Shown here piece after piece: positions 2,093-62,749 of a DNA stretch of 64,000 nucleotides (position 1 is the stretch's first letter; each line of letters opens with the position of its first letter). The translations under genes and the position numbers were made by a program. The notes under the pieces were generated by a model. That model was not told the origin of the DNA. It searched no databases and saw only the letters and a program-made list of their open reading frames with translations. Source of the stretch: Dehalococcoidia bacterium (GTDB lineage Bacteria; Chloroflexota; Dehalococcoidia; UBA6926); contig CAXXET010000004.1 in the NCBI GenBank assembly GCA_963666115.2, forward strand, positions 288,001-352,000, in the 5' to 3' direction.

Positions 2093-2304
2093 GATTCTTC
2101 GCTGCGCTCCGGATAACAGACCCGATGGATTCCGGCTTTCGCCGGAATGAGGGGGGGTAGGCCCCCGCCTGCGCGGGGGATTCGGAGGAGGGGTGCCCTT
2201 CGACTGCGCTCAGGGTGAGCGGAGGGGGGCGTTACGGGGCTTGGTTGGCACTATGAGATTCAGATTCCCGCTTTCGCGGGAATGACGGAGGGGGACGGAA
2301 ATGA
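2093..2304 (+). repeat. Composite cluster of palindromic repeats (family A variant 2093-2117; family B 2128-2150, 2161-2179 variant, 2263-2286; family C 2196-2222)
   Basis: GATTCTTCGCTGCGCTC, GATTCCGGCTTTCGCCGGAATGA, CCCTTCGACTGCGCTCAGGGTGAG and GATTCCCGCTTTCGCGGGAATGAC stacked in one intergenic region. Confidence 0.85.
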
Positions 2305-2346
2305 TGAGGCGGGGGCGCCTCCGCGTATACTGATTTTAGAGGCGTC

Positions 2347-3135
2347 ATGATGATACGAGTATCCTTGCTGGCCATTGTCGCAGCCGTGCTGGTTGCCGGT
2401 TGCTCTCTTGTGGAGAGCGATACGCCTACGCCTACTCCCCCGCCGCCCTCTCCGACGCCAGACCCGTCCACACTATGGGGATCTGTTGATGGTAATGTAA
2501 GTGTCGGAATTCACGATTCGTCCTGGTACGGTCCGCCAGTATTGTTCAGCCAAGTATACGATGCAGATGTTATAGTGCGCGCAAGATTTAGTTCGGCCAA
2601 GGCAAGTGTCGAAAAGATCGTAGGCACGATAAGCAACTCACACAGATACAAAGGGTTGAAGGTGGGAGACATCAGATATCATCCAAAGCTCGAGTTGACA
2701 TTCAACGTCATTGAGTATTTCAAGGGGTCAGGTGGACAGCAGATCACGGTGACCGTCTATAACGATTATTGGGTCGGAACTGAGGCCATAGCTCAAAGCC
2801 GGGCGGACGGAATGCTTTCCGGCAGAGATACCCGATGGGATGATCGGGAGGCGATTCTGTTCGTGGATCAGGCGTTGCGTTATCACAGAATGACCGGAGC
2901 AGAGAACGTAAACACCTTCGTTCGGCATAGTCATCTGGAGTCACGGTTGAACTACATGGCGGGTTCAGATTCGAAGCTGAGCGAGGCTGAATTCTCAGTT
3001 TCACCGGGTTGGCATCCGACTACAGACGCAGCTGCTGCCAAGTGGTCCCTGACTCCCGGACGATATACGTTGTCGGCTAACGAAGGAGATTCGACGAGCT
3101 TTACGATCGCAGACATCCTCGCAGAGCTTGAATAG
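2347..3135 (+). CDS. Hypothetical lipoprotein, paralog B
   Basis: Lipobox LVAGC; N-terminus and C-terminal ADILAELE nearly identical to paralog A. Confidence 0.8.
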   Translation: MMIRVSLLAIVAAVLVAGCSLVESDTPTPTPPPPSPTPDPSTLWGSVDGNVSVGIHDSSWYGPPVLFSQVYDADVIVRARFSSAKASVEKIVGTISNSHRYKGLKVGDIRYHPKLELTFNVIEYFKGSGGQQITVTVYNDYWVGTEAIAQSRADGMLSGRDTRWDDREAILFVDQALRYHRMTGAENVNTFVRHSHLESRLNYMAGSDSKLSEAEFSVSPGWHPTTDAAAAKWSLTPGRYTLSANEGDSTSFTIADILAELE

Positions 3136-3143
3136 TTGGGCTA

Positions 3144-3224
3144 GATTCTTCGCTGCGCTCAGAATGACAGCCCCCTCCGCTCACAATGACAGCCCTCCCC
3201 GTTCACCCTGAGCCTGTCGAAGGG
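3144..3224. repeat. Family A palindrome (3144-3168), partial copy, and inverted family C copy (3201-3224)
   Basis: GATTCTTCGCTGCGCTCAGAATGAC; CGCTCACAATGAC; GTTCACCCTGAGCCTGTCGAAGGG. Confidence 0.85.
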
Positions 3225-3278
3225 TGGACCCCCCGTCCCCTTGCTATACTAAGGCGAGGGGTGGATTAAGGAGCTTTT

Positions 3279-4562
3279 ATGTCGCTGGTGTCGCAGGCTG
3301 ATTCGTTGGGGCGGGGTGAGTCTTTGTTGTTGCGGGCTGATCCTGAGGTTTTTGCTGCTATTGAGGGGGAGGAGGCCCGGCAGAGGGATTCGATCATTCT
3401 CATTGCGTCTGAGAATTACACTAGCCGGGCGGTTATGGAGGCGCAGGGGTCTGCGCTCACGGAGAAGTATGCGGAGGGGTATCCCGGGCGACGGTATTAC
3501 GCGGGGTGCGAGTTCGCGGACGTTGTGGAGGACCTGGCACGGGAGCGGCTCAAGGAGCTTTTTGGGGTAGAGCACGCGAACGTGCAGCCCCACAGCGGCG
3601 TGCAGGCCAACATGGCGGCGTACTTCGCGTTCGTGAAGCCGGGGGACACCATTCTCGGCATGAGGCTTGACCAGGGCGGGCATCTGTCGCACGGCAGCCC
3701 CGTCAGCTTCTCCGGCCAGTACTACCAATTCGTCTCCTACGGGGTGGACCGCGAGACGGAGATGATCGACTACGACGAAGTGGAGTCGCTGGCGCGGGAG
3801 CACCGCCCCAAGATCATCGTGGCCGGCGCAAGCTCCTATCCGCGCACTATCGATTTCGCCAACCTGCGGCAGGTCGCCGATTCCATCGACGCGCTGTTGA
3901 TGGTGGACATGGCGCACTACGCGGGGCTGATCGCGGGCGGCGTCTACCCGGACCCCGCCCCCTACGCGGACATCATGACGTCCACCACGCAGAAGACGCT
4001 GCGGGGGCCGCGCGGGGCGTTCATCCTGAGCAAGCAGGAGCACGCCGCCGCCATCGACCGCTCCGTGTTTCCCGGGGCGCAGGGCGGGCCGATGATGCAC
4101 ACCATCGCGGCGAAGGCCGTGTGCTTCGGGGAGGCGCTGAAACCGTCGTTCCGCTCCTACCAGGAGCAGGTCCTGGCCAATGCGCGGGCAATGGCAACGG
4201 AGATGGCGGCGGACGGACTGCGAATCGTCTCAGGCGGCACGGACTGCCACCTGTACCTGGTGGACGTGACCACGCTTGGCACAACAGGCAAGGCGGCGGC
4301 AGACCTTTTGGAATCGGTGGGCGTCATCACGAATCCGAATGCGATCCCGTTCGATGAGCTTCCGCCGCGCGTGGGCAGCGGCGTCAGGATTGGCACGCCG
4401 GCGATTACGAGCCGCAATTTTGATGAGGATGACGCGCGCGCCGTTGCGCGGCTGATCACGCGCGTTCTCAGGAGCCCGGAGGATGAGGCCGTCCTTGAAT
4501 CGGCGCGCGCGGAGGTCGCGGAGTTGACGGGGGCGCATCCGATACCCCAACTCTTTGACTGA
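3279..4562 (+). CDS. glyA: Serine hydroxymethyltransferase
   Basis: [44 protein letters not shown] motifs; AAGGAG RBS. Confidence 0.97.
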
Positions 4563-4608
4563 GCCGTCTTGTATACTTCACTAGCGAAAAGCATTAAAGG
4601 GAGGCTGA

Positions 4609-5354: not shown

Positions 5355-5423
5355 GAGCGCGCTCATCGCCCTGCCCTATGAAAGCCGTGTAGACTTAACG
5401 GCAATCAGCCTTGGAGGAAATGA

Positions 5424-5828: not shown

Positions 5829-5840
5829 GCGGCACAACGA

Positions 5841-8256: not shown

Positions 8257-8269
8257 CGGGGGCTTTGGG

Positions 8270-10950: not shown

Positions 10951-12152
10951 CTGTTCGATCGGTTGGGCTGCTTGCCCTGCATTCCTGCCCGTTGACTGCG
11001 CTGGGCACGGGGAAGGCGGGGGGGATGTCTTCCTATGTCCTGGGGCTTGCGCGGGAGTTTTCGCGGCGGGGGATCACCGTGAAGATCATCACGAATGAGC
11101 ATACGGAAGGGCATGGCGGCGGCGAGTTGTGTGACGGGTTTGAGGTGGTTCACGTGGCGAGTGGGGCGGCTGATGAGATTGCGGGGGCGTTGGGGGCGGA
11201 TTGTGAACTGATTCACTCTCATTATTGGGTTTCGGGGCTTGCGGGGATGGGCGTGGCGCGGCGGCTTGGGGCGCCGCACGTGACGACGTTTCACACGATT
11301 GGGGTGGTCAAGGAGGAGGCCTGGGTTCCCGCTTTCGCGGGAATGACGGAAGGGCACAGGGAGAGGGTGCAGGCGGAGGGGGTGGTTGCGCGGGGGGTGG
11401 ACGGGATCGTGGCGTGGACGCGGTTCGAGGCGGATGCGCTGGTTTCGATGCTGGGGGCTGAACGGGAGCGGATTGCGGTTGCGCCTATCGGCGTCGACAC
11501 GGACCGGTTCCGGCCACTGGATACGGCAGAGGCGCGTCGATGTCTTGGGATTGGCGCCGATGAGGAGACTTTGCTGTACGTCGGGCGGCTCGATCGAATC
11601 AAGGGGGCTGACGTGCTGCTGAGGGCGGCGGGGCTCCTTATTAAACGGCCGTGGCTGCGGGTTCGTTTCGTAGGCGGCGAGGTGGATGCGAACTATGCGG
11701 CCGGGCTGCGAACACTGGCGGCTGACCTAAACATCGCGGACAGAATCTCGTGGGTTGGGCCTGTGCCGAACGATGAATTGCCGTGGCATTATGCGGCGGC
11801 GGACGTGGTCGTCGTGCCATCGTATTCGGAGAGTTTCAGCATCGCGGCAACGGAGGCAATGGCGTGCGGCAGGCCGGTCGTGGCGTCCAACGTGCCGGGG
11901 CCGGCGTCGTTCATCGAGGACGGGGTATCGGGCCGGCTTGCGCCGGCGGGTGACGCCCCTGCCCTTGCGCGCTCCGTTGGGGAGTTGCTGGACGACGACG
12001 CGCTGCGGGAACGGCTTGGGGAAGGGGCGTTGGCGGCGGCGCGGGGGATGACGTGGGGGGCGAGCGCGGAGACGGCGCTGGGGCTGTACGAGAGGGTGAT
12101 CGAGGTGGGGGGCGAAGTGGGGTCTTTGGATTCTTCGCTGCGCTCAGAATGA
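10947..12152 (+). CDS. mshA: GT4 glycosyltransferase, MshA-like; in-frame family B repeat, stop supplied by family A repeat
   Basis: LHSCPL..GTGKAGGM, IHSHYWVSG, LYVGRLDRIKG, PSYSESF..EAMACG. Confidence 0.75.
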   Translation: MTVRSVGLLALHSCPLTALGTGKAGGMSSYVLGLAREFSRRGITVKIITNEHTEGHGGGELCDGFEVVHVASGAADEIAGALGADCELIHSHYWVSGLAGMGVARRLGAPHVTTFHTIGVVKEEAWVPAFAGMTEGHRERVQAEGVVARGVDGIVAWTRFEADALVSMLGAERERIAVAPIGVDTDRFRPLDTAEARRCLGIGADEETLLYVGRLDRIKGADVLLRAAGLLIKRPWLRVRFVGGEVDANYAAGLRTLAADLNIADRISWVGPVPNDELPWHYAAADVVVVPSYSESFSIAATEAMACGRPVVASNVPGPASFIEDGVSGRLAPAGDAPALARSVGELLDDDALRERLGEGALAAARGMTWGASAETALGLYERVIEVGGEVGSLDSSLRSE

Positions 12153-12153
12153 C
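12129..12153 (+). repeat. Family A palindrome overlapping the mshA-like stop codon
   Basis: GATTCTTCGCTGCGCTCAGAATGAC encodes DSSLRSE*. Confidence 0.9.
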
Positions 12154-13675: not shown

Positions 13676-16600
13676 ATGAGCACAGGCAATCAGAACCGGG
13701 CGGCACTCCAGGAGTACTTGGCCAGCGTCAGGGCGACGCTGGCGACGGGGCAGGCGGGAGAACACGCATACCGTGGCACGTTTGAGAGCCTGATTCGGAG
13801 TTTCGAGGGCGGGCAGTACAGGGCTATCAACGAGCCGCGCGGCGAAACCGTCGGGCGGCCAGATTTTGTCATTCACGAGGGCGACGTACCCGTTGGCTAT
13901 GTTGAGTGCAAGGACATTGGCGCCGACCTTGAGCGGGAAGAAAGTTCCGAGCAACTTGGGCGTTACCGCGACGGCTTGCACAACCTGATCCTGACGGACT
14001 ACCTGACGTTCCGGTGGTACGTGGAGGGGGAGTTCCAGAGGGAAGTCACGCTGGCGACACGACAGCCTGACGGCACACTCAGCCGGGCTGCGCAAGGCTA
14101 TACGGACGTCGATCTGCTCCTCAAGGATTTTTTGTCTCAAGACGCAACCCTCGTCAATACGCCGCAGGAGCTAGCGCGGCGCATGGCAATCAAGACGCGG
14201 CTCCTACGAGATTCGGTTCGCAGCAGACTTGCCGAGAATCCGACGGAGGGTTCCGTTGCGGCTTTTCAGCGTCTGAGCAGGGAATTGCTGGCAGCGGAGT
14301 CCGATGTAGAGGCAGTTGCGGATACGTATGCCCAGACGGCGGCTTACGGCCTGTTTGCGGCATGGCAGAAGCGTCCTGCGGGCAGCGAATTTACGCGTCA
14401 GTCAGCGGTGTTCACGGACATGACGCCGTTCTTGGGAGACGCGCTCGACAGTGTTGCGGGACGCCGGACCGAGGGAAAGCTTGCGTGGGTTATCGACGAC
14501 CTAGCGCGGCTCCTGGACAAGACAGACCGGTCGGCAATCATGCAGGGGTTTGCCCGCGCCCCAGGGCAAGACGACCCGATTATCCACTTCTACGAGGATT
14601 TCCTGGCGGTGTACGACTCAAGCATGCGCGAGAAACGCGGCGTCTATTACACCCCGCTGCCGGTCGTGTCCTATATCGTGCGCAGCATCGACAAGCTCTT
14701 GCGGGACAGCCTGGGGATTGCCGACGGGCTGGCAGACACAGAGAAGGTCGGCAACGGGGAGCACCATAGAGTAACAATTCTCGATCCGGCGGTGGGCACA
14801 GGCACGTTCCTTCGGGAGGTTGTAGCGCACGTTCGCGGCACGATCAGAGACAAGGGTTTGGGCGGCATATGGCCGGAGTACGTTAAGGACGACCTGCTGC
14901 CACGGCTACACGGCTTTGAACTGCTGATGGCGCCGTACACGATCAGCCATCTGAGCCTTAGCGTCGCGCTATCCGCTGACGGCACCCCGGGGGACATTGG
15001 CATCGGCGACCGTGAAATAAACGTCGTGCTGACGAATTCGCTGGAGCCAGCGCATGTCGTGAGCTCCGGGCCGTCATTCTGGGATGCGTCTTCCATCGAA
15101 GCAGAGTCATCCCGCGCCGACGACGTGAAGCGGGACCGGCCAGTGATGGTCGTCCTTGGCAATCCACCCTATTTCGCAGAGTCTGCCAACGACGGACAGT
15201 GGATACGCGGTCTCTTGCGGGGCAAGGATGGGGAAGCGGACACCGGCTCATATTTCCACGTAGATGGGGAACCGCTTGGGGAACGAAACCCACGATGGCT
15301 CAACGACGACTACGTGAAGTTCATTCGCTTCGCCCAGTGGCGCATCGAGCAGACCGGAGAGGGTGTGCTGGGGTTCATCACGAATCACAGCTACCTGGAC
15401 AATCCGACGTTCCGGGGGATGCGCCACAGCCTGCTGGAGACCTTTGACGATATCTACATCCTCGATCTTCATGGGAATGCCATGAAACGAGAGAAGGCGC
15501 CAGACGGCAGCGCGGACGAAAACATCTTCAATATCCAGCAGGGTGTAGCGATCGCACTGTTCATCAAGCGGGCTGACCAGAGAGCGGGGTTGGCAACGGT
15601 GCGCCACGCAGACTTGCGGGGCAAGCAGGGAGACAAGCACGCGTGGCTGGGAGAGCACGACGTATCCGATACAGAGTGGACGGAGTTGAATCCACGGCAG
15701 CCAGGCTATTTCTTCATTCAACGCAACAATGGCGTCCTCGAAGACGAATATGAACGCGGTTACAGCGTTGCTAACATCTTTCCAATGAATTCAGTTGGTA
15801 TTGTGACGGCGCGGGATAAGCTGACCATCCAGTGGTCAGAAGAAGATATGGTGGAGGTCGTCACCGATTTCGCAGCGCGTGGGGTTGAGGATGCGCGTGA
15901 GCATTACGCCCTGAATAGCGACGCGGAAGACTGGAAAGTAGGACTGGCCCAACAGGATCTCCGAGACCACCCGAATCTTTCGGATCACGTGACGGAATTG
16001 CTCTACCGACCGTTTGATATGCGCCACACCTACTACACAGGGCAATCGAGAGGCTTTATTTGCCGACCGCGCCAGAACGTGATGCGGCACATGCTGGCGG
16101 GGCAGAACCTGGGGCTGATTTCCAGTCGGCAGGTATCTGTCGACAACGGCTACTCGCATGCCATAGCGACACGCCACATCGTTGACGCCAGGTCTGTGTA
16201 TACGAGCAGGGGCATCATGTCTCTGATGCCCCTCTACTTGTATCCGACGGATGCAGAGCGGGAGAGGGGCATCGGCGTCAGGGCGAATCTGGATGAGGGA
16301 TTCGTCGAGGCAGTAATTGAGGCTATCGGGCTGACGTTCACGCAGGACGGGCCGGGTGATTTGAAGTCGACGTTCGGGCCAGAGGACGTGTTCCATTACG
16401 TGTACGCGATCCTGCACAGCCCGGGCTATCGGACTCGCTACGGCGATTTTCTGAAGTCGGACTTTCCGCGCATCCCGTTGACGCGCAGCCAAGAACTATT
16501 CAGACGGCTCATCACGTCGGGGCGGCGGCTCACGGAATTGCATCTCATGGAGGCTGAGCCACTGACGCAGCCGAGTTTTCCCGAGCAGGGGAACTTGCGG

Positions 16601-20213: not shown

Positions 20214-21082
20214 GCTCCCGCGCTCGCGTTCAGCCGGACGGGGACGTTTTGGCTTCGCATGTAGTCCTTGACCTGGGCGATTGTGTATTCGCCGTAGTGG
20301 AAGATGCTTGCGGCGAGCGCGGCGTCCGCCCCGCCCTGGACGGCCTCACACATGTGCTCCACGCCGCCCGCGCCGCCGGAGGCGATGACGGGGATGGTGA
20401 CGGCGTCCGCGACTGCGCGAATGAGTTCGAGATCATAACCGGACTTGGTGCCGTCGGAGTCGATGCTGTTGAGGACGACCTCGCCGACGCCGAGTTCTGC
20501 CGCGTAGATGGTCCATTTGAGGGCATCGATGCCTGCGGCACGGCCGCCATCGGCGCCGGTGTGGGTGCGGACTTCCCAGCGGGTGGATTCGTCAAAGGCG
20601 ATGGGGGATGTGGAGGGGGGAGGATTCTTCGCTGCGCTCAGAATGACAGGGTCGGGATTGATGCGACGGGGGTGGGGGTTGATGCGGCGGGCGTCCATGC
20701 CGAGGACGATGCACTGGCTGCCGAACTGTGCGGCGGACTCACGGATGAGTTCCGGGTTCTGGACGGCGGCGGTGTTGATGCTGACCTTGTCCGCGCCGGC
20801 GTTGAGCATTGTCCGGACATCTTCGACTGAGCGGATGCCGCCGCCGACGGTGAGGGGGATATAGACTTCTTCGGCGACGCGTCGGACAACATCGAGCATG
20901 ATGGCACGCCCGTCCGAGGAGGCCGTGATGTCGTAGAAGACGAGTTCATCCGCGCCCTGCTCATCGTAGAAGCGGGCGAGTTCGACGGGGTCGCCGGCGT
21001 CGCGGTGGTCCCGGAAACGGACGCCTTTGACAACACGTCCGCCCTTGACGTCGAGGCATGGGATGATTCTGCGAGAGAGCAT
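20210..21082 (-). CDS. hisF: Imidazole glycerol phosphate synthase cyclase subunit with repeat-derived loop insertion
   Basis: [57 protein letters not shown]. Confidence 0.96.
20623..20647 (+). repeat. Family A palindrome in frame within hisF
   Basis: GATTCTTCGCTGCGCTCAGAATGAC reads VILSAAKNP on the minus strand. Confidence 0.9.
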
Positions 21083-22133: not shown

Positions 22134-22155
22134 CCTTCGACAAGCTCAGGGTGAC
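22134..22155 (+). repeat. Family C palindromic element overlapping the hisA stop
   Basis: CCTTCGACAAGCTCAGGGTGAC; reverse complement gives TCA CCC TGA. Confidence 0.8.
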
Positions 22156-24162: not shown

Positions 24163-24207
24163 GATTCTTCGCTACGCTCAGAATGACATATGGGCGCTCA
24201 GAATGAC
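24163..24207 (+). repeat. Family A palindrome plus partial tandem copy in the dnaJ leader
   Basis: GATTCTTCGCTACGCTCAGAATGAC followed by GCGCTCAGAATGAC. Confidence 0.85.
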
Positions 24208-29549: not shown

Positions 29550-29636
29550 GAGGAATGATCGCAACGCAGGCGTCGGCTACGAGCGGCGCACCCTTGTATA
29601 GTGTGAGGGCAAACAACACGGAGGGATGGTTACGCG

Positions 29637-31795: not shown

Positions 31796-31884
31796 CCTTT
31801 CGACAGGCTCAGGGTGACCGGGGGGGCTGAGGGTAGTGGTTTGGGGGATAATGTTGAGGGATTCTTCGCTGCGCTCAGAATGAC
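31796..31884 (+). repeat. Family C (31796-31818) and family A (31860-31884) palindromes
   Basis: CCTTTCGACAGGCTCAGGGTGAC; GATTCTTCGCTGCGCTCAGAATGAC. Confidence 0.85.
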
Positions 31885-31917: not shown

Positions 31918-32793
31918 ATGAGTGATTATCCTTTGGGGGAGGGGTTTGTTTCTGTTGAGGGGATGCGGCTCCAGTTTGTGGAGGCCGGGCCTTCGAATGG
32001 GCCGCCTGTGGTGTTTTTGCACGGGATCGGCGGGGGCATCGAGGATTGGTGGGCGAACCTCGGTTATTTCGGCGAGCAGGGGTATCACGTGCTCGCGCCG
32101 AGTATGCCGGGGCATGGGAAATCGGAGTATCACCCCGATGAATGGGATCCAGCGGAGAGCGGCAAGACAGTCATCGCGCTGCTGGACGCATGGGGCATCG
32201 ATTCCGCGCCCCTGATCGCGCACTCGGCCGGCGGGATTGCGGCGATACTGGCCGCGCTGGAGTTTCCCGAACGGGTGGAGTCGCTGGTGCTGGCCGCGCC
32301 TGGCGGGCTGACGCGCAAGATGGGGTGGCCGCTGCGGCTCGTGACCATCCCGTTCGTAGGGGAGGCGATGTGGCATCCGCGGCTGCTGGCCGGACACCGC
32401 GCCCGCAAGACGATCTTCGCGGATGAGAACCTGGTGAATCACACGATCATGGACGAGTGGGTGGCGCGGCACCGCGACCCGCAACAGCGCAAGGCGTTCT
32501 TTGACCTGCTTCGCAGGGGAATGGATATTCGCGGGATGAAGCGGCCCTATAACCTGCGGGGGCGGGCGCGGGATGTGCGTTGCCCGACGCTCATCTTCTG
32601 GGGGCGGGAGGATATGATTGTGCCTTCGCCGGAGACACGGGACGGGCGGTTAATGACGTGGCCGGAGGCGGAATTCCGGGAGCTATCGCCGTGCGCGCAT
32701 TGGCCGCAGGTGGAGCAGGCGGAGGTTTTTAACAGGGAGGCGGCGGGGTTTTTGGCACGGGCGGGGGTGGATTCTTCGCTGCGCTCAGAATGA
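31918..32793 (+). CDS. Alpha/beta-fold hydrolase; stop supplied by family A repeat (32770-32794)
   Basis: VVFLHGIGG, PGHGKS, AHSAGG nucleophile, CAHWPQVEQ. Confidence 0.9.
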   Translation: MSDYPLGEGFVSVEGMRLQFVEAGPSNGPPVVFLHGIGGGIEDWWANLGYFGEQGYHVLAPSMPGHGKSEYHPDEWDPAESGKTVIALLDAWGIDSAPLIAHSAGGIAAILAALEFPERVESLVLAAPGGLTRKMGWPLRLVTIPFVGEAMWHPRLLAGHRARKTIFADENLVNHTIMDEWVARHRDPQQRKAFFDLLRRGMDIRGMKRPYNLRGRARDVRCPTLIFWGREDMIVPSPETRDGRLMTWPEAEFRELSPCAHWPQVEQAEVFNREAAGFLARAGVDSSLRSE

Positions 32794-32847
32794 CAGACGG
32801 GGCGGAAAAGGGATTGGTTTGGCGGGGGTCGGGGGCATATAATCGGC

Positions 32848-36577: not shown

Positions 36578-36799
36578 ATGGAATGGACGCACCTGGCGAC
36601 GATGGACGACCAGATCAGCGCGGAGCTGCTGGTCCAGGCCCTGCGGGATGAGGGCATCGAGGCGCTGGTCAACCAGGGTGATACGAGCAGCTTTCTTGGC
36701 GTGATGGGACAGCCGTGCCGCGTGATGGTGCGGGCGGACGCATGGGGGCGGGCGACGGCGCTGTTGGAGAAGTGGGATTCTTCGCTACGCTCAGAATGA
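36578..36799 (+). CDS. DUF2007-like small protein; stop supplied by family A repeat (36776-36800)
   Basis: AELLVQALRDEGIEA...RVMV pattern. Confidence 0.7.
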   Translation: MEWTHLATMDDQISAELLVQALRDEGIEALVNQGDTSSFLGVMGQPCRVMVRADAWGRATALLEKWDSSLRSE

Positions 36800-36827
36800 C
36801 ATTATGCGGTCAGAATGACATGGGGGG

Positions 36828-37343: not shown

Positions 37344-37368
37344 AATTCTTCGCTGCGCTCAGAATGAC
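37344..37368 (+). repeat. Family A palindrome downstream of mutL
   Basis: AATTCTTCGCTGCGCTCAGAATGAC. Confidence 0.85.
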
Positions 37369-37376: not shown

Positions 37377-39209
37377 TTAGCGGCGGCCGAATTGGCGTTC
37401 AAGTTGGGCGGAGCTGAGGTGGACCATCGTCGGGCGGCCGTGGGGGCATAGGCGGGGGAAGTTGGCGTCGCTGAACAGGGTGATCAGGGACTCCATTTCG
37501 GCGAGGGAGAGGGTCTGACCGGCACGGACGGTGGAGTGGCAGGCGATGGTGGCTGCGACGCGCCTTTCCCGCATATCGACGGCGTCCGCGGCCTGGGTGA
37601 TTACGGTATCAGAAGTATCAGCTTCATCAGGGGAGGACTGGATTCCCGCTTTCGCGGGAATGACGGAGGGGTAGTCGTCGATTTCGCCGCCGGAACGCTC
37701 GTCTAGGACTTCGAGGAAGGCTTGCGGGGCCTCTGATTCTTTCAGCGTCGCGGGCATGGCGCGGAGGAGGATAGCATCGTCGCCGAACGTCTCCCACTCG
37801 AACCCGTAGGACGATAGGAGATCGCTCAAGGGGGCGATGGCATCCTGTTGGCGAGTTGTGAGTTGGACGGTGGCAGGCGTGAGGAGGCCCTGCGACGTGG
37901 CGGTCTGCTCTCTGCGCCCGGCGAGGATCTGTTCAAAGACGACGCGTTCATGGGCGGCGTGCTGATCAATGAGGTACATGCCGTCCGGGCCTTCGGCGAC
38001 GATGTAGGTGAGGCCGACCTGGCCGACGGGGCGGAGGGTGAATTGTTGCGGGGGGGGCGGTGCGCCACTGTGTTCGGTTGCCGAATTGGGGTCAAGATTC
38101 CCGCTTTCGCGGGAAAAAGGAGAGGGGGGTGGGAAGAGGGGCGGGGGTTCGAGTTGGATTTCGGCGTCGGGGGGGGCGGAGGGGATTGGGGTTCCTGCTT
38201 GCGCGGGAACAACTGCTGGGAGGTGGACGGCGAGGGTGCGGCGGAGGGCGCGCTGAACGGTTGCGATGACTTCGCCCTCACGCCGCAACCGCACTTCTGC
38301 CTTGGTGGGATGAACGTTGACGTCAATCTCATCGGGCGGGACGGTGACAAAGAGGACAACGAGGGGATAGCGCCCTCGCTGGATGATGTCGCGGTAGGCG
38401 TCGGCAATGGCGTAATAGAGGATGCGGGCCTCAACCAGGCGTCCATTGATAAAGAGAATTTGGCCAGCGCGGCGCGGGCGCGTGGTGCCCGGCTCACTGG
38501 CATAGCCCGAGACGGTCGTTCCGCCCATGGTGGTGGGCTGGATGGGAAGCATACCGGACGCGGTGTCCGGGCCCCACATTTCGAGCAGGACATGGGAAGC
38601 ATCGCCGCTGCCGGGTGAGTGGAACGCGAGGCGTCCATCGACGATGACACGGAGAGCGACATCGGGGTGCGCGAGGGCGTACTGAGTGAGGACGGTAACG
38701 CAGCGCGTCGCCTCGGCGGCGGCTGAGCGGAGGAATGAGAGGCGGGCGGGAACGTTCTTGAAGAGGTCGCGGACAAAGACGGTGGTGCCGAACGGCGCGC
38801 CCTGCATGCCCCGCTCGATGATGTCATTGTCGGCGGCGATGACGTACTGGCCGCCCTCAGTATCCGAAACGCGGGAGACGATTGTCATGCGGGCGACGGC
38901 TGCGATAGAGGCAAGAGCCTCACCGCGAAAGCCGAGAGTGCCGATGCGCTCAAGGTCCCGGACTGTTCGCAACTTGGACGTGGCGTGGCGCATGACGGCG
39001 AGTTCAAGTTCATCCTCCGGGATGCCGGATGCGTCGTCGGTAACGCGGATGAGGTCGAGGCCGCCACGCACGATTTCAACTTCGACCTGGCCGGCGCCGG
39101 CGTCGATTGCGTTTTCGACCAGTTCCTTGACGACGGACGCGGGGCGTTCGATGACCTCGCCGGCAGCGATCTTGGAGGCTACGTCTCGGTCGAGGAGTTG
39201 GATGGGCAT
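37377..39209 (-). CDS. mutL: DNA mismatch repair endonuclease MutL, with three in-frame family B repeats
   Basis: IAAGEVIERPASVVKELVEN, RHATSK, GFRGEAL, DVNVHPTK, DQHAAHER, ACH, CPHGRP. Confidence 0.97.
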   Translation of the reverse strand: MPIQLLDRDVASKIAAGEVIERPASVVKELVENAIDAGAGQVEVEIVRGGLDLIRVTDDASGIPEDELELAVMRHATSKLRTVRDLERIGTLGFRGEALASIAAVARMTIVSRVSDTEGGQYVIAADNDIIERGMQGAPFGTTVFVRDLFKNVPARLSFLRSAAAEATRCVTVLTQYALAHPDVALRVIVDGRLAFHSPGSGDASHVLLEMWGPDTASGMLPIQPTTMGGTTVSGYASEPGTTRPRRAGQILFINGRLVEARILYYAIADAYRDIIQRGRYPLVVLFVTVPPDEIDVNVHPTKAEVRLRREGEVIATVQRALRRTLAVHLPAVVPAQAGTPIPSAPPDAEIQLEPPPLFPPPSPFSRESGNLDPNSATEHSGAPPPPQQFTLRPVGQVGLTYIVAEGPDGMYLIDQHAAHERVVFEQILAGRREQTATSQGLLTPATVQLTTRQQDAIAPLSDLLSSYGFEWETFGDDAILLRAMPATLKESEAPQAFLEVLDERSGGEIDDYPSVIPAKAGIQSSPDEADTSDTVITQAADAVDMRERRVAATIACHSTVRAGQTLSLAEMESLITLFSDANFPRLCPHGRPTMVHLSSAQLERQFGRR

Positions 39210-41892: not shown

Positions 41893-43191
41893 ATGAGGGA
41901 ACGTGGATCGACTGTTGAGGCTGGGCAGGGCGCGGCGGCGGGGCGGCGCCTCTATACACGTTCTTTCGTCCTGCTGTTCCTGATGGAGTTCACGATCTTC
42001 GTGACCTTCTACATGCTGCTGCCGACGGTGCCGCTGTACATCAAGGAGTTGGGCGGCACAAATTCGACCGTTGGGCTGGTCATCGGCATCGCCGGGCCCG
42101 TCGCGGCGTTCGGCGTCCCCCTGTACGGGCTGGGCGTGGACAGGTGGAGCCGCAAGGGAATGGCGGTTCTCGGATTGATGATCAACGTTGCCGGCGCGCT
42201 GGTGATGATCATCGTCGTGTCGCCGCTGATGATGCTGATACCGACGATTCTGCGGCGCGTGGGGTCCGGCGCAACGGGGGCGGCGACGCGGACGCTGATC
42301 CTGGACATTGCGCCGCCGAGCAGGCGCGGCGAGGCGATGACGAACTTTGCCACGTCGCACAACATCGCCATCGCGTTTGGGCCCGCCGTTGGGCTGTGGA
42401 TCTATCACGGTTTCGGATCGACGGAACTGTTCCTTGCGTGCGCTGCGGTGATGGCGGGGGCGGCGTTGTTTTTGTGGCCTGTGGGCGGACGCCCTCACCC
42501 TAGCCCTCTCCCGGGGGGAGAGGGGGCAGCGGCTGGCGACGCCAAACGTGTCCCAGAGGGAGAAGAGAGCGGAGAGCCGCGACGGGAGACGTGGGTGGAC
42601 AAGTTGATTGTGCCGGAGGCGCTTGTGCCGGGGATCACGGTGCTGCTGTTGTCCGCAGCGTACCTGGCAACGACGACATTCGTGTCCATCCTGGGAGAGA
42701 CGCGGGATGTGCCGAATTACGAGTGGTTCTTCGTGCTGTACGCGGTCGTGGTTATTTCCGGGCGCCTGCTGACAGGCCGCGTCTCCGATACGTATGGCCG
42801 GGCAATTATCCTGCTACCGTCGCTGGCGCTGACGGTGGGGTGCATGGTGACGCTGGCGTTTACGTATTCGACCGCCGGGTTCCTCGCGGCGGCGTTCATG
42901 CTGGGGCTGGGGTTTGGAACAGGACAGCCAATGCTGCAAGCCCTCGCGGCCGACTGGACACCGCCGGAGAAGTACGGGCGCGCGATGTCCATGATGATGG
43001 GCGGTTTCTCGTTCGGCTCGGCTGCGGGAACGGTATTCGTTGGCGAGGTGAGCGAACGACTGGACTTCACGGCGGCGTTCCTGGGGCTGGCAGTGTCGGC
43101 CGGCATTGCGCTGCTCATCGCGTGGTGGGGATTCCGGCGGCGCCGGATCCCGGTGTTTGGGGCGGCGGCGCGGCGGGGTACAATCGGATAG
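41893..43191 (+). CDS. MFS transporter with in-frame family D repeat in the central loop
   Basis: About 12 TM segments, GLGVDRWSRK and GRVSDTYGR motif A; GRPHPSPLPGGEG from 42492-42526. Confidence 0.9.
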   Translation: MRERGSTVEAGQGAAAGRRLYTRSFVLLFLMEFTIFVTFYMLLPTVPLYIKELGGTNSTVGLVIGIAGPVAAFGVPLYGLGVDRWSRKGMAVLGLMINVAGALVMIIVVSPLMMLIPTILRRVGSGATGAATRTLILDIAPPSRRGEAMTNFATSHNIAIAFGPAVGLWIYHGFGSTELFLACAAVMAGAALFLWPVGGRPHPSPLPGGEGAAAGDAKRVPEGEESGEPRRETWVDKLIVPEALVPGITVLLLSAAYLATTTFVSILGETRDVPNYEWFFVLYAVVVISGRLLTGRVSDTYGRAIILLPSLALTVGCMVTLAFTYSTAGFLAAAFMLGLGFGTGQPMLQALAADWTPPEKYGRAMSMMMGGFSFGSAAGTVFVGEVSERLDFTAAFLGLAVSAGIALLIAWWGFRRRRIPVFGAAARRGTIG

Positions 43192-44325: not shown

Positions 44326-44349
44326 GATTCCCGCTTTCGCGGGAATGAC
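44326..44349 (+). repeat. Family B palindrome between convergent genes
   Basis: GATTCCCGCTTTCGCGGGAATGAC. Confidence 0.88.
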
Positions 44350-47527: not shown

Positions 47528-47547
47528 GATTCCCGCTTTCGCGGGAA
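47528..47547 (+). repeat. Family B palindrome
   Basis: GATTCCCGCTTTCGCGGGAA. Confidence 0.85.
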
Positions 47548-47559
47548 AGCGGATTCCAG

Positions 47560-48987: not shown

Positions 48988-49014
48988 CCCTTCGACTGGG
49001 CTCAGGGTGAGCGG
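48988..49014 (+). repeat. Family C element
   Basis: CCCTTCGACTGGGCTCAGGGTGAGCGG. Confidence 0.8.
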
Positions 49015-51363: not shown

Positions 51364-51422
51364 GATTCTTCGCTGCGCTCAGAATGACATGAGGGCGGTT
51401 TCAGAATGACATGGGGGCGGTT
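51364..51422 (+). repeat. Family A palindrome with a 22-bp tandem duplication of its 3' end
   Basis: GATTCTTCGCTGCGCTCAGAATGAC; TCAGAATGACATG(A/G)GGGCGGTT twice (51379-51400, 51401-51422). Confidence 0.85.
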
Positions 51423-53977: not shown

Positions 53978-54080
53978 CCCTCACCCTAACCCTCTCCCAG
54001 AGGGAGAGGGGATTTTCTGGGTGTCGTTACTCGGTTGGATTACACTACGAGTTCTGGATTCCCGCTTTCGCGGGCAAGAC
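53978..54080 (+). repeat. Family D (53978-54011) and family B variant (54057-54080) palindromes
   Basis: CCCTCACCCTAACCCTCTCCCAGAGGGAGAGGGG; GATTCCCGCTTTCGCGGGCAAGAC. Confidence 0.85.
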
Positions 54081-54408: not shown

Positions 54409-56853
54409 CTATCTCAGCGCGTCGGCGGCGGCGAGTTCGCGGGTTTCTTCCTGGCCGATGCCGAGAATCTCGGTGAGGATGGCGTCCGTGTGTTCGTTGA
54501 GCATGGGGGCTCGGCGGAGTTCGCCTGCGTATTCGCCGTTGACTTGCCAGGGGACTTTGGCGGTGCGGCGCGGGCCTGCCTCCGGGTGGTCGATTGTGGC
54601 GAAGAAGTTTCGCGCTTGGGGGTGGGGGTGTTCGACTACTTCCAGCGGGTCGAGGATGGGGGCGGCGGAGACGCCGACGGCGGCGAGTTCATCGGCCATG
54701 GTGTATTTGTCTCGCGACTTTGTCCACGCGGCGATGATGTCATCGAGCGCGGCCTCGTTCTGCTTGCGGGATTCAGGGGTGGCAAAGCGGCTATCGTTGG
54801 CAAGGTCGTTGATGGCGCTGGACAAGCCAGTCCATTCGGAATCAGTGCGGGCGGTTATGGCAATCCATTGGTCGTCACCGTTGGCGGGGTAGATGTTGTG
54901 GGGGGCGTGGAGGGGGTGGTGGGAGCCATCGCGTTGGGGCGTGTAGCTGCCCGTGGCGCGGGCGACCATCGGCTCCGTGATGAGCGTCATGAGGGCTTCG
55001 GTCATTGCGACGTCGACATGATGCCCCATGCCGGTGCGGCGGCGGTCGTGGAGCGCGGTCAGCGTGGCCATGGCGGCGTAGGTGGCGGAGACGACGTCCG
55101 GGAAGTAGGAGCCGAGCAGCCGCTGGTGGCCGCCTGCGTAGCCGGTGACGTCCGTGAGGCCGCAGAAGGCGTTGATGATGCTGTGGAGGCCGCTGTAGTC
55201 CTTGAGGGGGCCGCTCCTGCCAAAGGCGGCGACAGACGTGTAGATGACACGGGGGTTGAGGGGGGCGATGTCTTCATAGCCGAGTCCCCACCGCTCCATG
55301 AGGCCGGTGGAGAAGTTCTCAAGCACGATGTCCGCGGACGCACACAGGCGGCGGGCAACGCCCCTGCCCTCTTCGGTCCGGAGGTTGATGGGGATGGCGC
55401 GCTTGCCCATGCTGAGCGTGTTGTAGGCGCCGGCGCGGTTCATGCCGGGAATCTCATTGGCGAACGGGGGCGAGTTGCGGAAATCGGCGGGGTTCTCACG
55501 GCTCTCAACCTGGATGACGTCCGCGCCGAGGGCGGCGAGCCACTTGGCGCAGTACGGGATGGCGATGTATTGGCCGAAGTCAATGACGCGGATGCCTTTC
55601 AGGGGGAGGGAGGGGGTGGGAGGATTCTTCGCTGCGCTCAGAATGACATCGTTTGCGTCAGTGGCATTGTTTGCGCCGTTGACTGATGTTGGCGCGGGGA
55701 CGGAACCATCGGCCTCCGGCTTGCCGGATTCGTTGCGGGGGTAGCCGGTGAGGATGAACGGCGCGCCGGTGAAAGGGACTTCCTGGCCGTCCTGCGTGGC
55801 AACCGCGCGGATGAAACGGCGCTCGCGGACGTGTTCGTGGGTCAGAACCTGGTCGAGGGTCGTGGACCAGAACGCGGGGATGTTGCGGGCTTGCAGCTCT
55901 TCTGTGATTTCCTTGCCGGTACGCTCCATCGTCCAGTTGGTCATCAGGACGCTGACGACGTCCCAGTTCATGGCGCGCTTCGTGCCATCGTCGAAGTCCT
56001 CCGTGTAGGCCCACTCCGGGCTGCCCATGACCTCGGCGAACTGCTCCCAGTGGCGGGCGCTCATGGCGACGATGACGATCCAGCCGTCCTTGCACTCGAT
56101 GTAGCAGTTGGGCTGGCGGGCAAGGATGTTGGGGCCGCGATCAAGCACACGCTCCAGGTATTCGCGCTGCAGAACGGGGTGGTAGTTGAGGGCGGTGACG
56201 GCCTCGAGTTCGGAGAGTTCGATGCGCGTGCCGGTGACGCCCGGCCCTGTTCCGTTGCCACTGCCGGATTCCGCGTAGAGCGTGGCGAGCGTGGCGACGA
56301 CGCCGACTGCGCCGGCCATGAGCGATGGGACGGACGCGCCGGTGGGCATGAGCGGCGGTTCATTGGGGAGATCATAGGTGGTGTCCGGCGGGCCGGGGGT
56401 GGTCCACGCCATGCCGCAGAGCGACCACGTTGCGAGATCGCTGGGCGGGAGGTTCGCAAGCGGGCCGTCCGCGCCGTAGGGCGTGAGAGAGACGACGGTC
56501 AGATGGGGGTAGCGGGCGTGGATGGCGTCCCAATCAAGGAAGGAGTTGTCACCGTCGAACAGGCCAACGTCCTCGATGAGGATGTCCTGCCCATCAAGGG
56601 CTGCGACCAGGGATTCCGGCGTGACGGTTTCGGCGTCAGTGTCAGAGCGGTGGGACTTGTTGGCGTTGAGGGAGCGGTGGAGCATGGGGTCCCATTCCGG
56701 CATTTCGCGTCCCTTGAGGCGGACGTAGAGGTTCCTCATGCGGCGGACGCGGTCGACGTCCGCGCCAAGCTCGCCGAGGAGGCGGGCGGCGTAGGCTCCG
56801 GCGAACGATGCGGTGACATCGACAACTCGCAGATGCGACAGCGGACCTGACAT
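54409..56853 (-). CDS. Tandem-fused class III (CaiB/BaiF) CoA-transferase; family A repeat in the interdomain linker
   Basis: Two domains: PLSHLRVVD..LGADV and PLKGIRVIDF..LGADVI; APMLNEHT; VILSAAKNP at 55623-55647. Confidence 0.92.
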   Translation of the reverse strand: MSGPLSHLRVVDVTASFAGAYAARLLGELGADVDRVRRMRNLYVRLKGREMPEWDPMLHRSLNANKSHRSDTDAETVTPESLVAALDGQDILIEDVGLFDGDNSFLDWDAIHARYPHLTVVSLTPYGADGPLANLPPSDLATWSLCGMAWTTPGPPDTTYDLPNEPPLMPTGASVPSLMAGAVGVVATLATLYAESGSGNGTGPGVTGTRIELSELEAVTALNYHPVLQREYLERVLDRGPNILARQPNCYIECKDGWIVIVAMSARHWEQFAEVMGSPEWAYTEDFDDGTKRAMNWDVVSVLMTNWTMERTGKEITEELQARNIPAFWSTTLDQVLTHEHVRERRFIRAVATQDGQEVPFTGAPFILTGYPRNESGKPEADGSVPAPTSVNGANNATDANDVILSAAKNPPTPSLPLKGIRVIDFGQYIAIPYCAKWLAALGADVIQVESRENPADFRNSPPFANEIPGMNRAGAYNTLSMGKRAIPINLRTEEGRGVARRLCASADIVLENFSTGLMERWGLGYEDIAPLNPRVIYTSVAAFGRSGPLKDYSGLHSIINAFCGLTDVTGYAGGHQRLLGSYFPDVVSATYAAMATLTALHDRRRTGMGHHVDVAMTEALMTLITEPMVARATGSYTPQRDGSHHPLHAPHNIYPANGDDQWIAITARTDSEWTGLSSAINDLANDSRFATPESRKQNEAALDDIIAAWTKSRDKYTMADELAAVGVSAAPILDPLEVVEHPHPQARNFFATIDHPEAGPRRTAKVPWQVNGEYAGELRRAPMLNEHTDAILTEILGIGQEETRELAAADALR

Positions 56854-58258: not shown

Positions 58259-58332
58259 AAAGACTCTCCGTTTGTCTTGTCCCGTTCGGGTGGCGTTAGA
58301 GGAATGATAGCGGTTTGCGGAGAGTCAGGGGG

Positions 58333-59043: not shown

Positions 59044-59060
59044 GTGTCTGTCCGCCTCGT

Positions 59061-61072: not shown

Positions 61073-61755
61073 GCGGTGGCATCCCCGTTTTCGCCACGGA
61101 ATATCTCGGTCAACATACGGCGGCGCGGGGCCATGCGCCGGATGGGCGCGCCGATCTCCAACACCGCGTCCAGCACAGTGTCATTGTGCAGGTTCGGCTC
61201 ATCCTGCGGCACCAGCACGGAACTGCCCTCTATGGTGGCGGTGATGCCGCGCGCGGCCAATGCGGCCACGAGCGCTTCCTGGTTGGGTCCGACGTCCACC
61301 GCCAGGGTCTGCGTGTCTCCCGTGAATCCCTCGACGGAGCCTTCACGCGCAACCCGGCCGCCCTCAAGGACGATGATGTTTTCGCAAGTACGCTCAACCT
61401 CGCCCATGAGGTGGGAGGAGAACACGACGCTGATGCCGAAATCCGTGCCGGTGCGCCGAACAAGGGAGAGCATATCGTCGCGGCTTTCCGGATCGAGGCC
61501 GGCGGTCGGCTCATCGAGCAGGATCAGCCTGGGGTCGTGGACAAGAGCCTGGGCGAGCTTGGCGCGCTGCTTCATGCCGGTGGAGTATTCGCCCATGCTT
61601 CGGAATCGCTCCTCGTGCATTCCGACGTGGCGGAGAGTATCGGATGCGCGTGAGCGGGCTTCGCCGGGCGGGAGGCCACTCACGCTATCGAGGGCAAGAA
61701 CCCTGCCGTAACGCTTGGTCAGGTTGGTCGCTTCGAGGAGGGGGGCTGTTTCCAT
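61069..61755 (-). pseudogene. ABC ATP-binding protein with an in-frame deletion of the Walker A/Q-loop region
   Basis: KRYGRVLALDSVS joins directly to GLPPGEAR; signature YSTGMKQR, Walker B LLDEP and H-loop present, GxxGxGKT absent. Confidence 0.7.
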
Positions 61756-61762
61756 GAAAGCA

Positions 61763-61806
61763 GGATAGCGGATTCGGATTGTCAAGCCAATCCGAATCCG
61801 CTATCC
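61763..61806. terminator. 19-bp perfect inverted repeat (terminator of the upstream gene or operator)
   Basis: GGATAGCGGATTCGGATTG-tcaagc-CAATCCGAATCCGCTATCC. Confidence 0.55.
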
Positions 61807-61833
61807 GCACAAAATGATTATGACCATGCGTTC

Positions 61834-62700
61834 TTAAAGAGTTTCCTCTTCAAGCTGCTGCCAGTCCGAGAGGCCGAGGATTTCGTTGCGGGCGGGGAGG
61901 GGCATGACTCGGTCAAGGAGGTTGGCGTTGCCACCCTGCCCCTTCAGCGCGTCGAGGCTGTCGGCGACGGCTTTGGCGGCTGCGCCGATGGCGAGGCCCG
62001 AATAGCCGATGAGTGTGTAGCCCATCTCAGCGAGATCGGCGGCGGGCAGGAGCGGAGTCTTGCCGCCTTCTGTGAGAACGACCATGAGCGTGCCTTTGCC
62101 CACGAGTTTGGGGAATTGTTCAAGCTCGTCGCTAGTTCCGGGGCCGGCGAGAAAGGCCATATCTGCTCCGGTGTCAAGGTAGGCGCGGGCGCGTTTCGCT
62201 GCGCCCTCTACGCCCTCGGTTTCGACGGCGTCCGTGCGAGCGATGACGACGAAATCGGGGCTGCGCCTTGCGCCCAGGGCGGCGCGGAGCTTGCCCAGCA
62301 TGGCGTCTGTCGAGACCACGCGGGTTCCGGCAAGGTGGGCGCAGCGTTTCGGGTCTTCCTGGTCTTCCATGAAGAGACCGGCCAGGCCCGCGTCCTCCAT
62401 GGCGCGGACGGTGTGAGCGGCCTGCAACGGGCCGCCGTAGCCGGTATCGGCATCGGCGATGACAGGGATATTCACGGCAGCAGCGATGCGGCGGGCCTGC
62501 CCCACCACGTCCTCACGTGAGAGAAGCCCGACGTCCGGCAGGCCGAATGCGGACGCAGCGACGGATGAGCCGCTGATGCCGGCGGCGGGGAAACCAGCCG
62601 CCTCGATGAGTTTGGCGGAGAAGGCATCGTAGGCGAAGGGGACGACGAGGGGGGCGGGGGCAGCCAAGAGTTGGCGGAGGGAGTTTGGTTTGGTAGTCAT
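61834..62700 (-). CDS. Isocitrate lyase/PEP mutase family enzyme (PrpB-like)
   Basis: AYDAFSA, GLPDVG, ADADTGYG, EDQEDPKRCAH, IARTDA. Confidence 0.9.
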   Translation of the reverse strand: MTTKPNSLRQLLAAPAPLVVPFAYDAFSAKLIEAAGFPAAGISGSSVAASAFGLPDVGLLSREDVVGQARRIAAAVNIPVIADADTGYGGPLQAAHTVRAMEDAGLAGLFMEDQEDPKRCAHLAGTRVVSTDAMLGKLRAALGARRSPDFVVIARTDAVETEGVEGAAKRARAYLDTGADMAFLAGPGTSDELEQFPKLVGKGTLMVVLTEGGKTPLLPAADLAEMGYTLIGYSGLAIGAAAKAVADSLDALKGQGGNANLLDRVMPLPARNEILGLSDWQQLEEETL

Positions 62701-62706
62701 GGTTTA

Positions 62707-62749
62707 GGTTCCCGCTTTCGCGGGAATGACGGATGGGGGCGGGAATGAC
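62707..62749 (+). repeat. Family B palindrome plus partial tandem copy
   Basis: GGTTCCCGCTTTCGCGGGAATGAC...GCGGGAATGAC. Confidence 0.85.

Follow-up and report, generated by a model that had tools for sequence, protein, structure and literature searches.

The window described here is the whole 64,000-nucleotide stretch of DNA analysed (C4:288001-352000, contig C4 of G000, a Dehalococcoidia genome of 2.07 Mb in 9 contigs with a completeness score of 100%). Strewn between its genes, and inside hisF, mutL and a GT4 glycosyltransferase gene, are four families of short repeats, A to D, nearly all copies of which, throughout the genome, lie with the same strand on the G-rich side of the DNA. One of them, B, together with a subfamily B', resembles the dRS3 and NTS elements of Neisseria, members of a class known both as Ssn-related motifs (SRM) and as CGTC-tagged repetitive extragenic palindromes (REPs), and a small gene on the same contig encodes a protein resembling SsnA, the nuclease that cuts one strand (the Ssn-sense strand) of such elements in Neisseria.

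A sequence-only reading of this DNA had described the families as palindromic, strand-polarised and without a mobiliser in the window. All 11 copies that it listed for family A were recovered, all on the plus strand, with 0 expected from 100 shuffles; eight are exact, one has one mismatch and one has three. For family B, 9 of about 10 listed copies were recovered at three mismatches or fewer, again all plus and with 0 expected, while the copy at 38190 is degenerate. The copy at 2128, for which a changed stem had been noted, belongs to the separate subfamily B' (GATTCCGGCYTTCGCCGGAATGAC). Five copies of family C were found (2197, 3203, 22134, 31797 and 48989), the one at 3203 being inverted as claimed, and two of family D (42492 and 53978), both plus and both exact; one of the 100 shuffles gave two D matches, at three mismatches. 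The description as palindromic holds for B and B', which fold as DNA at -9 kcal/mol (z about -4.6 to -4.8), but not for A and C (z about 0), with D at z -1.0. None of the 53 open reading frames (ORFs) in the window matches a transposase, recombinase or nuclease family in Pfam, which bears out the absence of a mobiliser. The copies are as follows.

2093..2117, plus: A copy with 3 mismatches, beginning at the TAG stop of ORF 1209-2084
2128..2151, plus: B' copy with ATTCCGGC stem, of SRM / CGTC-REP type, Ssn-sense strand minus
2197..2218, plus: C copy
2263..2286, plus: B copy, exact, DNA hairpin of -9 kcal/mol
3144..3168, plus: A copy, exact, beginning at the TAG stop of the paralogous ORF 2347-3135
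3203..3223, minus: C copy, the only inverted copy in the window
11324..11347, plus: B copy in frame within the GT4 glycosyltransferase ORF, reading WVPAFAGMT
12129..12153, plus: A copy that provides the C-terminus and stop of the glycosyltransferase ORF (DSSLRSE*)
20623..20647, plus: A copy in frame within minus-strand hisF, reading VILSAAKN
22134..22154, plus: C copy
24163..24187, plus: A copy, intergenic
31797..31817, plus: C copy with 1 mismatch
31860..31884, plus: A copy, 43 nt past the C copy; C-then-A is a common order genome-wide
32770..32794, plus: A copy upstream of dnaE
36776..36800, plus: A copy followed by a half-site (TCAGAATGAC)
37344..37368, plus: A copy with 1 mismatch
37641..37664, plus: B copy in frame within mutL (SVIPAKAGIQ); with its flanks a full match to the 28-nt NTS consensus on the minus strand
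38096..38119, plus: B variant without the GTCAT tag (ends GGGAAAAAG), in the mutL linker, reading FSRESGN
38190..38213, plus: B copy, degenerate, with 4 differences counted by eye; lies in the mutL linker and reads VPAQAGT
42492..42525, plus: D copy, CCCTCACCCT followed by a CCCTCTCCC/GGGAGAGGG hairpin
44326..44349, plus: B copy that fills a 43-nt convergent spacer
47528..47551, plus: B variant, lineage-specific
48989..49010, plus: C copy
51364..51388, plus: A copy with two half-sites downstream
53978..53998, plus: D copy, 79 nt upstream of a B copy
54057..54080, plus: B copy with 2 mismatches
55623..55647, plus: A copy
62707..62730, plus: B copy, intergenic

GC skew is positive throughout the window, in which blocks of genes lie on both strands, and the copies remain plus across the blocks of minus-strand genes. 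Not all copies are extragenic: several sit in frame within hisF, mutL (three) and the GT4 glycosyltransferase gene, and intragenic in-frame copies, notably in DNA repair genes, are described for CGTC-tagged REPs by Di Nocera et al. 2013 (PMC3733652). Since the repeats write in-frame peptides (in mutL, hisF and the glycosyltransferase) and spurious ORF extensions, annotation should mask them. ORFs 1209-2084 and 2347-3135 are neighbouring paralogues with no Pfam match and nearly identical last 50 nt, and each ends at a TAG that forms the first bases of an A copy; the pair has the look of a tandem duplication in which the repeat was copied together with the gene.

The constant orientation seen in the window extends to the whole genome, where it flips together with GC skew, as the sequence-only reading had proposed should be examined. 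At three mismatches or fewer, the genome holds 90 copies of A and 136 of B and B' combined, and orientation agrees with the skew in 84 of the 90 and 124 of the 136, whether skew is measured on all DNA or on predicted coding DNA alone (genes were called with a simple codon-usage caller and are approximate). The agreement is 49/58 for C (49:9) and 22/26 for D (22:4). Counted as G-rich to C-rich strand, exact copies divide 76:5 (A), 46:4 (B) and 33:0 (B'), isolated half-sites 48:7, with 24:0 for the tag-less B variant TTCGCGGGAAAA. Without exception, the most frequent 12-mers in the genome come from the repeat families and are skewed about 10:1 or more; G-rich octamers are skewed in general, for example GGGNAGGG at 412:241. 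Orientation across the genome is clearly not random. Among adjacent repeat pairs (neighbours within 200 nt), 74 of 77 are head-to-tail and three inverted, with C, A, B', B as a recurrent array order.

Genes do not share this bias: 397 plus and 444 minus genes lie in skew-positive domains and 430 and 464 in skew-negative ones. The G-rich strand carries 47% of predicted genes, which is no excess. All four configurations of flanking genes occur, for A 19, 22, 14 and 33 times and for B 39, 34, 17 and 43 times. Whichever strand a gene is on, the skew at its third codon positions tracks the direction of the closest repeat (+0.05/+0.22 vs -0.25/-0.08), and because coding-only and third-position skew give the same domains, an artefact of G-rich repeat flanks could be ruled out. 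Nor does strand-asymmetric hairpin stability find support as the cause, the nearest-neighbour fold being -9.0 vs -8.8 kcal/mol on the two strands. DNA mini-hairpins of the GAAA type have a special stability. Exact copies are at least as polarised as degenerate ones, and decay has gone no further in the 19 discordant copies (mean mismatches 0.33 vs 0.17 for A and 1.62 vs 1.56 for B), which rules out that discordant copies are simply decayed.

The G-rich strand is generally the leading strand. In keeping with this, the single rRNA gene and the S10-operon marker L2 are both on the G-rich strand (2/2 marker operons), a weak check on the assignment in this genome, whose skew changes sign many times. 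With the agreement across families, half-sites and both measures of skew, the polarity is very probably linked to replication.

Next, we asked what the repeats are. The core of B is that of dRS3 (ATTCCC-N8-GGGAAT), as the sequence-only reading had stated, and B with its flanks matches the 28-nt Neisseria NTS consensus, its reverse complement being an exact instance of the published sequence CGTCATTCCCGCGMAVGCGGGAATCYRG; NTS contains dRS3 (PMC11893778). A search with the published SRM motif, HGTCWYN(0-2)YYVSBRHN(0-5)WNVSBRGN(0-2)RNCYNB, found 121 sites in the genome against 12 in the same genome read backwards, and about 96 of the 121 are B or B'; no consensus of A, C or D is among the motif hits. 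B and B' carry the tag CGTCAT and a tail of CCA/CAG; their stem is 8 bp long and begins with AT, and their loop measures 4 nt (GTCATTCCGGCGAAGGCCGGAATCCA and similar). CGTC-tagged REPs are defined by a CGTC/TGTC tag, a stem of 8-9 bp starting AT, a loop of 4-5 nt and a CCA tail, and dRS3 is listed among them as CGTC-1, with no dedicated transposase reported in the available text (Di Nocera et al. 2013, PMC3733652). NTS and SRM elements have been connected with the GIY-YIG ssDNA (single-stranded DNA) nuclease SsnA by Chenal et al. 2025 (PMC11893778), and SRMs or CGTC-tagged REPs occur in hundreds of copies in many bacteria, including Neisseria, Rickettsia, Wolbachia and sphingomonads (PMC11893778; PMC3733652). 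B and B' are almost certainly SRM or CGTC-tagged REP elements, of the class of Neisseria dRS3/NTS.

The other families stand less close. A and C have in common with B and B' the GTCA tag and the tail, and share a GAGC...CGAAG core; they are imperfect hairpins with internal mismatches and occur with B and B' in recurrent head-to-tail arrays. A-like elements also adjoin ssn, the gene for the Ssn-type protein, in G015, G016 and an Anaerolineaceae metagenome-assembled genome. D, another kind of hairpin, occurs in these arrays too. The common ends, the membership of arrays and the A-like elements beside ssn tie A and C to Ssn, and the four families may plausibly, if tentatively, be regarded as the set of Ssn-related hairpin motifs of this genome.

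Additionally, the enzyme that the sequence-only reading had placed outside the window, naming GIY-YIG among the candidate kinds, has a counterpart on the same contig: a 98-residue GIY-YIG ORF flanked by repeats, at G000:C4:200673-200969, 87 kb upstream of the window. The genome contains only two GIY-YIG matches, this one and a 677-residue ORF taken to be UvrC. In the shorter protein the Pfam GIY-YIG domain spans residues 8-79 (E 5e-16) and is the only domain; NCBIfam gave only sub-threshold hits, and a sequence search for a solved structure found none. The other candidate enzymes did not materialise in a genome-wide search: no match was obtained for Y1 (PF01797, the RAYT-type transposase domain, with a control positive in 6/14 genomes), IS110 (PF01548) or DUF559. 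The role of recombinase target that had been named for dRS3 is likewise without counterpart here, since no IS110/Piv-type gene was found.

The Ssn-like ORF has B' copies on either side, at -56 and +193 nt; another small hairpin follows each of them, and C copies lie farther out. Motif copies flank ssn in 10/11 loci of the genus or class, the exception being G012, and of the 10 genus loci whose flanks could be recognised, seven (this one and those of six congeners) have them as direct repeats; a canonical inverted pair occurs in three congeners and in another genus. We found 405 relatives of Ssn, of 53-172 residues and mostly 95-98. At 38 loci that hold a relative of the protein, in Dehalococcoidia, Arenicellales, Thiotrichales, sphingomonads, Lysobacteraceae, Patescibacteria, Rikenellaceae and others, the gene is mostly bracketed as GTCAT-hairpin ... 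hairpin-ATGAC, and the flanking stems co-vary between lineages by compensating changes while the tag stays constant. Residues Y10, Y21, R31, H35, E68 and N87, which are of the GIY-YIG catalytic type, are invariant in 12 aligned homologues, and the spacings of Y10, Y21 and E68 (11 and 47) are those of Y6, Y17 and E64 in N. meningitidis, a comparison of spacing and not of direct alignment. The 98-residue protein has the size (about 94-100 residues) and the single GIY-YIG domain of the Ssn nuclease family (cd10448), and on these sequence features it is plausibly of the Ssn kind, an assignment that we make with some reserve.

SsnA binds the NTS hairpin solely as ssDNA and cuts that strand a few bases upstream, leaving the reverse strand, duplex DNA and RNA uncut; it is characterised in the available text only as a site-specific ssDNA nuclease (PMC11893778). 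By analogy we infer that the enzyme of this genome would, like its Neisseria counterpart, cut the CGTCAT strand. In 102 of the 121 SRM-motif hits it is the C-rich strand that is homologous to the one cut by SsnA.

Several further features of ssn and its surroundings were noted. Proteins of Gammaproteobacteria, Pseudoxanthomonas among them, share 60-68% identity with the Chloroflexota protein, a sequence likeness that suggests transfer of the SRM-ssn unit between phyla. Directly downstream lies a single-copy TnpB gene (a 405-residue ORF of the RNA-guided endonuclease family, G000:C4:201362-202577); a C copy lies some 100 nt upstream of this gene, and a B variant follows it at a distance of about 240 nt. 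Between the ssn stop and the downstream B' copy are about five tandem 20-nt units (GTCATCCCCACCCCACCCCC; L001 1780-1940, G000:C4), and tandem half-site repeats (hairpin arm, GAATGAC and about 8 nt) follow many copies genome-wide. In G038, from another genus of the class, we found 27 Ssn matches, many with internal stops or cut by contig ends, along with 64 exact B copies, which looks like a burst of the SRM-ssn-SRM unit in the manner of an insertion sequence.

We then compared 21 other species of the genus, together with other genera of the family, order and class. The B/B' pattern is present in 19/21 congeners, in 0/3 genomes from other genera of the family, in 0/2 from the order and in 3/14 genera from the rest of the class; exact B/B' copies are missing from G019 and G021 and number one in G006. 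An Ssn homologue was detected in 12/21 congeners at E<=1e-5. The closed single-contig genome of G013 (1.9 Mb) carries 66 copies in long runs of one orientation with about a dozen switches, and its skew sign agrees with the repeat run in 18/20 sampled 20-kb regions; GC skew in this genome forms about six blocks. Because G013 shows the same blocks, the many skew flips are a property of the genus and not a fault of assembly, and skew and repeat direction change together; this single-contig genome also rules out polarity as an assembly artefact of a genome in 9 contigs. In congeners without an Ssn hit the polarity persists: orientation changes only 11 times over 46 neighbour pairs in G009, counted by eye, and is uniform within contigs in G022. 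At syntenic loci of 11 congeners, 14/14 elements point as they do in the window, though they occupy different slots.

Comparison of orthologous spacers in 10 genomes shows how these slots change hands. All 21 congeners can be aligned to a 20-kb stretch of the window, at 70-85% identity, with breaks at the intergenic spacers. G012, G022 and G023 share the position of the B copy at 44326, which in them stays near consensus despite diverged flanks; G007 and G024 have a degenerate version, only a GAATGAC half-site is left in G008 and G018, and G025 has no copy. The B copy at 47528 is found in this genome alone among the 10 and is a lineage-specific gain. Where this genome has A at 51364, G024 has A, G020 has B and G007 neither, and the slot of the C copy at 48989 holds an A-like element in G007, G024 and G020. 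The sequence-only reading had named copies fixed at orthologous positions in distant relatives as a finding that would speak against spreading: such fixation was found in part, for example at 44326 in species about 80% identical, but 47528 is lineage-specific and other slots are family-swapped. Other copies have been acquired, lost or replaced since the species diverged, and their orientation is the same in every case.

How such a polarity could arise is the question on which these data bear. The elements run head-to-tail, with the presumed cuttable strand on the C-rich strand, which by the usual rule would have the sequence of the nascent lagging strand and thus that of the leading-strand template. 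With the cuttable strand on the C-rich side, the G-rich lagging-strand template, which is exposed single-stranded at the fork, would therefore bear the uncuttable complement. Polarity would be made at birth: copies or blocks of copies would be generated or replaced by way of single-stranded pieces at the replication fork, taken into the nascent lagging strand in the manner of recombineering oligonucleotides, so that new copies, exchanges of one family for another within a slot and tandem duplications of half-sites would all face the same way relative to fork movement. We infer such an origin tentatively, as a possible one. It is favoured by the finding that exact copies are as polarised as decayed ones while discordant copies are not more decayed, by the persistence of polarity in congeners without an Ssn hit, by the polarity of the untagged D and the tag-less B variant, and by slots that show gain (47528), swapping (51364, 48988) and half-site remnants. 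Taken together, SRM-class repeats with an Ssn partner and a polarity set at birth form the best explanation that we can offer of the whole, one that is plausible but provisional.

In a stronger version, Ssn itself would be the engine of a copy-and-replace mobility, cutting hairpin-tagged single strands from DNA that is displaced or exposed; the pieces would be assimilated into the nascent lagging strand. Were this so, it would explain polarity, array order, slot swapping, half-site duplications by the cut site and in-frame insertions, all without a transposase; we consider it unlikely. The spreading system inferred in the sequence-only reading, strand-dependent and served by a remote enzyme, is supported as to the skew-linked polarity and the enzyme encoded elsewhere, but not as to spreading by that enzyme: Ssn is known only as a nuclease, and 7 of the 9 congeners without an Ssn hit keep copies.

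A number of observations weigh against the explanation from SRM-class repeats, an Ssn partner and polarity at birth. A and C lie outside the SRM motif, and their folding does not exceed that of shuffles. Nucleases of the GIY-YIG type neither ligate nor pass through a covalent intermediate, and Ssn is not known to transpose or copy DNA. The direction of the polarity is opposite to the IS200/IS605 rule. No Ssn hit was obtained in 9/21 congeners, of which seven carry 32-134 copies, four of these seven being single-contig genomes; the repeats can therefore persist without the enzyme, and Ssn may not be their maker. Certain copies are old, with orthologues in several species. A single origin and a single terminus would permit far fewer flips of skew than are seen, and dnaA (C8:66.2 kb) lies off any skew switch, so the skew is a record of past, not necessarily present, replication direction. 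In G005, an Ssn-bearing genome outside the genus, 151 copies are intermixed, often as inverted pairs, and skew is weak. G002 has only 22 copies, about 16 of them with the cuttable strand on the G-rich side in a replichore-like layout, and is possibly polarised in the reverse sense. G037 shows inverted pairs. Beyond the genus, polarity is not supported as a general rule.

The main rival to a polarity set at birth is filtering after insertion, whereby a copy with its cuttable strand on the lagging-strand template would be single-stranded whenever a fork passes and be nicked by Ssn, the fork broken and the copy lost, so that only the safe orientation would survive. Filtering fits the direction equally well, the SsnA-homologous strand being on the C-rich side in the same 102/121 motif hits; it also accords with an enzyme that cuts only ssDNA and only that strand (PMC11893778), and with ssn flanks that are direct, not inverted, in those 7/10 genus loci. 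Against filtering, exact copies match or exceed degenerate ones in polarity, decay is no more advanced among the 19 discordant copies, congeners that gave no Ssn hit are polarised as well, and D and the tag-less B variant, which should escape cutting, are polarised all the same. Both orientations are moreover tolerated in Neisseria, as described in PMC11893778, and in G005. We therefore rate filtering as rather unlikely.

A different source of polarity would be an older transposition system. IS200/IS605 elements are a known case of replication-polarised insertion (PMC3971601), and the families, at least A, C and D, could be relics of an IS200/IS605- or RAYT-type system whose Y1 gene was lost, with Ssn a bystander and the polarity a fossil of insertion into the lagging-strand template. 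The internal mismatches of the imperfect A and C hairpins would suit relics, as would the single TnpB that adjoins ssn with a C copy about 100 nt upstream. Against this, no Y1_Tnp match exists in a genome scored 100% complete, TnpB is single-copy, GTAG tags are absent, B and B' are exact matches to the Ssn motif, ends and arrays are common to A, B and C, and lineage-specific gains and swaps imply activity after the species split, all of which makes a relic origin improbable.

We give equally little credence to selection by the host, under which the elements or their G-rich flanks would be polar signals of chromosome architecture, like KOPS, read by the segregation or repair machinery. It would account for a polarity that extends to four unrelated-looking families and to half-sites (48:7), for elements that stay near consensus at orthologous sites while their flanks diverge, and for the general skew of G-rich octamers such as GGGNAGGG (412:241); but no protein reader is known, slot occupancy is highly variable between sister species, G019 and G021 lack any exact B/B' copy and G006 has one, and copies sit in frame within genes. 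Finally, RNA-level elements (terminators or stabilisers of 3' untranslated regions) oriented by transcription, with the strand rule reflecting gene orientation, are exceedingly improbable and can be dismissed, for although many REPs lie downstream of genes in published work and most copies here are intergenic (A 75/90, B 108/136 by the rough gene caller), all four gene configurations occur, genes do not follow the skew, window copies stay plus through minus-strand gene blocks and an Rfam scan of the window gave 0 matches at the gathering threshold.

Both the elements and the enzyme were already known (2013, 2025); new are the replication-linked polarity, the head-to-tail layout and its direction. 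Our search found nothing in the literature on strand polarity of these repeats, and neither 'leading strand' nor 'lagging' occurs in the main texts of PMC3733652 and PMC11893778. Nothing relevant was found on GIY-YIG proteins paired with REPs, REPINs, palindromic repeats or RAYTs, and a search for SsnA and GIY-YIG since 2024 returned only the discovery paper.

With the NTS/SRM-SsnA system, as described in PMC11893778, this genome has in common the fit of B and B' to the NTS consensus and SRM motif, a single small GIY-YIG gene flanked by motifs, and hundreds of copies. That paper notes that SRM-rich genomes are enriched in symbionts, and the host genus here is a sponge symbiont. There, NTS-ssnA-NTS has an insertion-sequence-like architecture with SRMs as inverted repeats of 20-50 nt (PMC11893778), whereas here the copies are head-to-tail and follow GC skew and ssn has direct flanks; in this genus, too, A and C fall outside the motif and several congeners have repeats but no detectable ssn. 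CGTC-tagged REPs share the tag, stem, loop, tail, in-frame intragenic copies and the lack of an associated transposase, but head-to-head dimers predominate among them and head-to-tail ones are negligible, in contrast to the 74/77 found here, and Chloroflexota is outside the five phyla of the paper, according to its available text (PMC3733652).

REP/REPIN-RAYT systems resemble the present one in their short hairpins with an unpaired tag, in a single-copy enzyme gene flanked by its own repeats and in vertical inheritance; they differ in that here there is no Y1 gene, the tag is CGTC/TGTC and not GTAG, inverted doublets are missing and the enzyme is of another superfamily. IS200/IS605 shares an orientation tied to replication direction, an ssDNA-specific enzyme and hairpin recognition sites, but its active strand lies on the G-rich lagging-strand template while the presumed cuttable strand here is C-rich (Ton-Hoang 2010, as cited in PMC3971601). 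It also works by HUH covalent transfer as against GIY-YIG hydrolysis in Ssn-type enzymes, and is multi-copy with TnpB and TnpA, whereas here TnpA is missing and TnpB is single-copy. Neisseria intergenic mosaic elements, which are dRS3 arrays and mosaics of several small repeat types with a dRS3 core, differ from these arrays in polarity, in phylum and in the lack here of an IS110/Piv-type recombinase.

The near-perfect alignment with strand asymmetry ties the origin or survival of SRMs to ssDNA at the fork and indicates the strand that matters, so that polarity offers an experimental handle on how SRMs arise. In genomes with mosaic skew, repeat orientation is also a cheap marker of past inversions.

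Two other features of the window deserve mention. Positions 28074-31133 encode two adjacent PD40 (WD40-like beta-propeller) proteins with a G+C content of 0.556 vs about 0.63 and weaker skew, and are possibly acquired DNA. At 13676-16882, among cell-envelope sugar genes, lies a 1068-residue ORF with the C-terminal specificity domain of a Type ISP restriction enzyme (E 1e-82).

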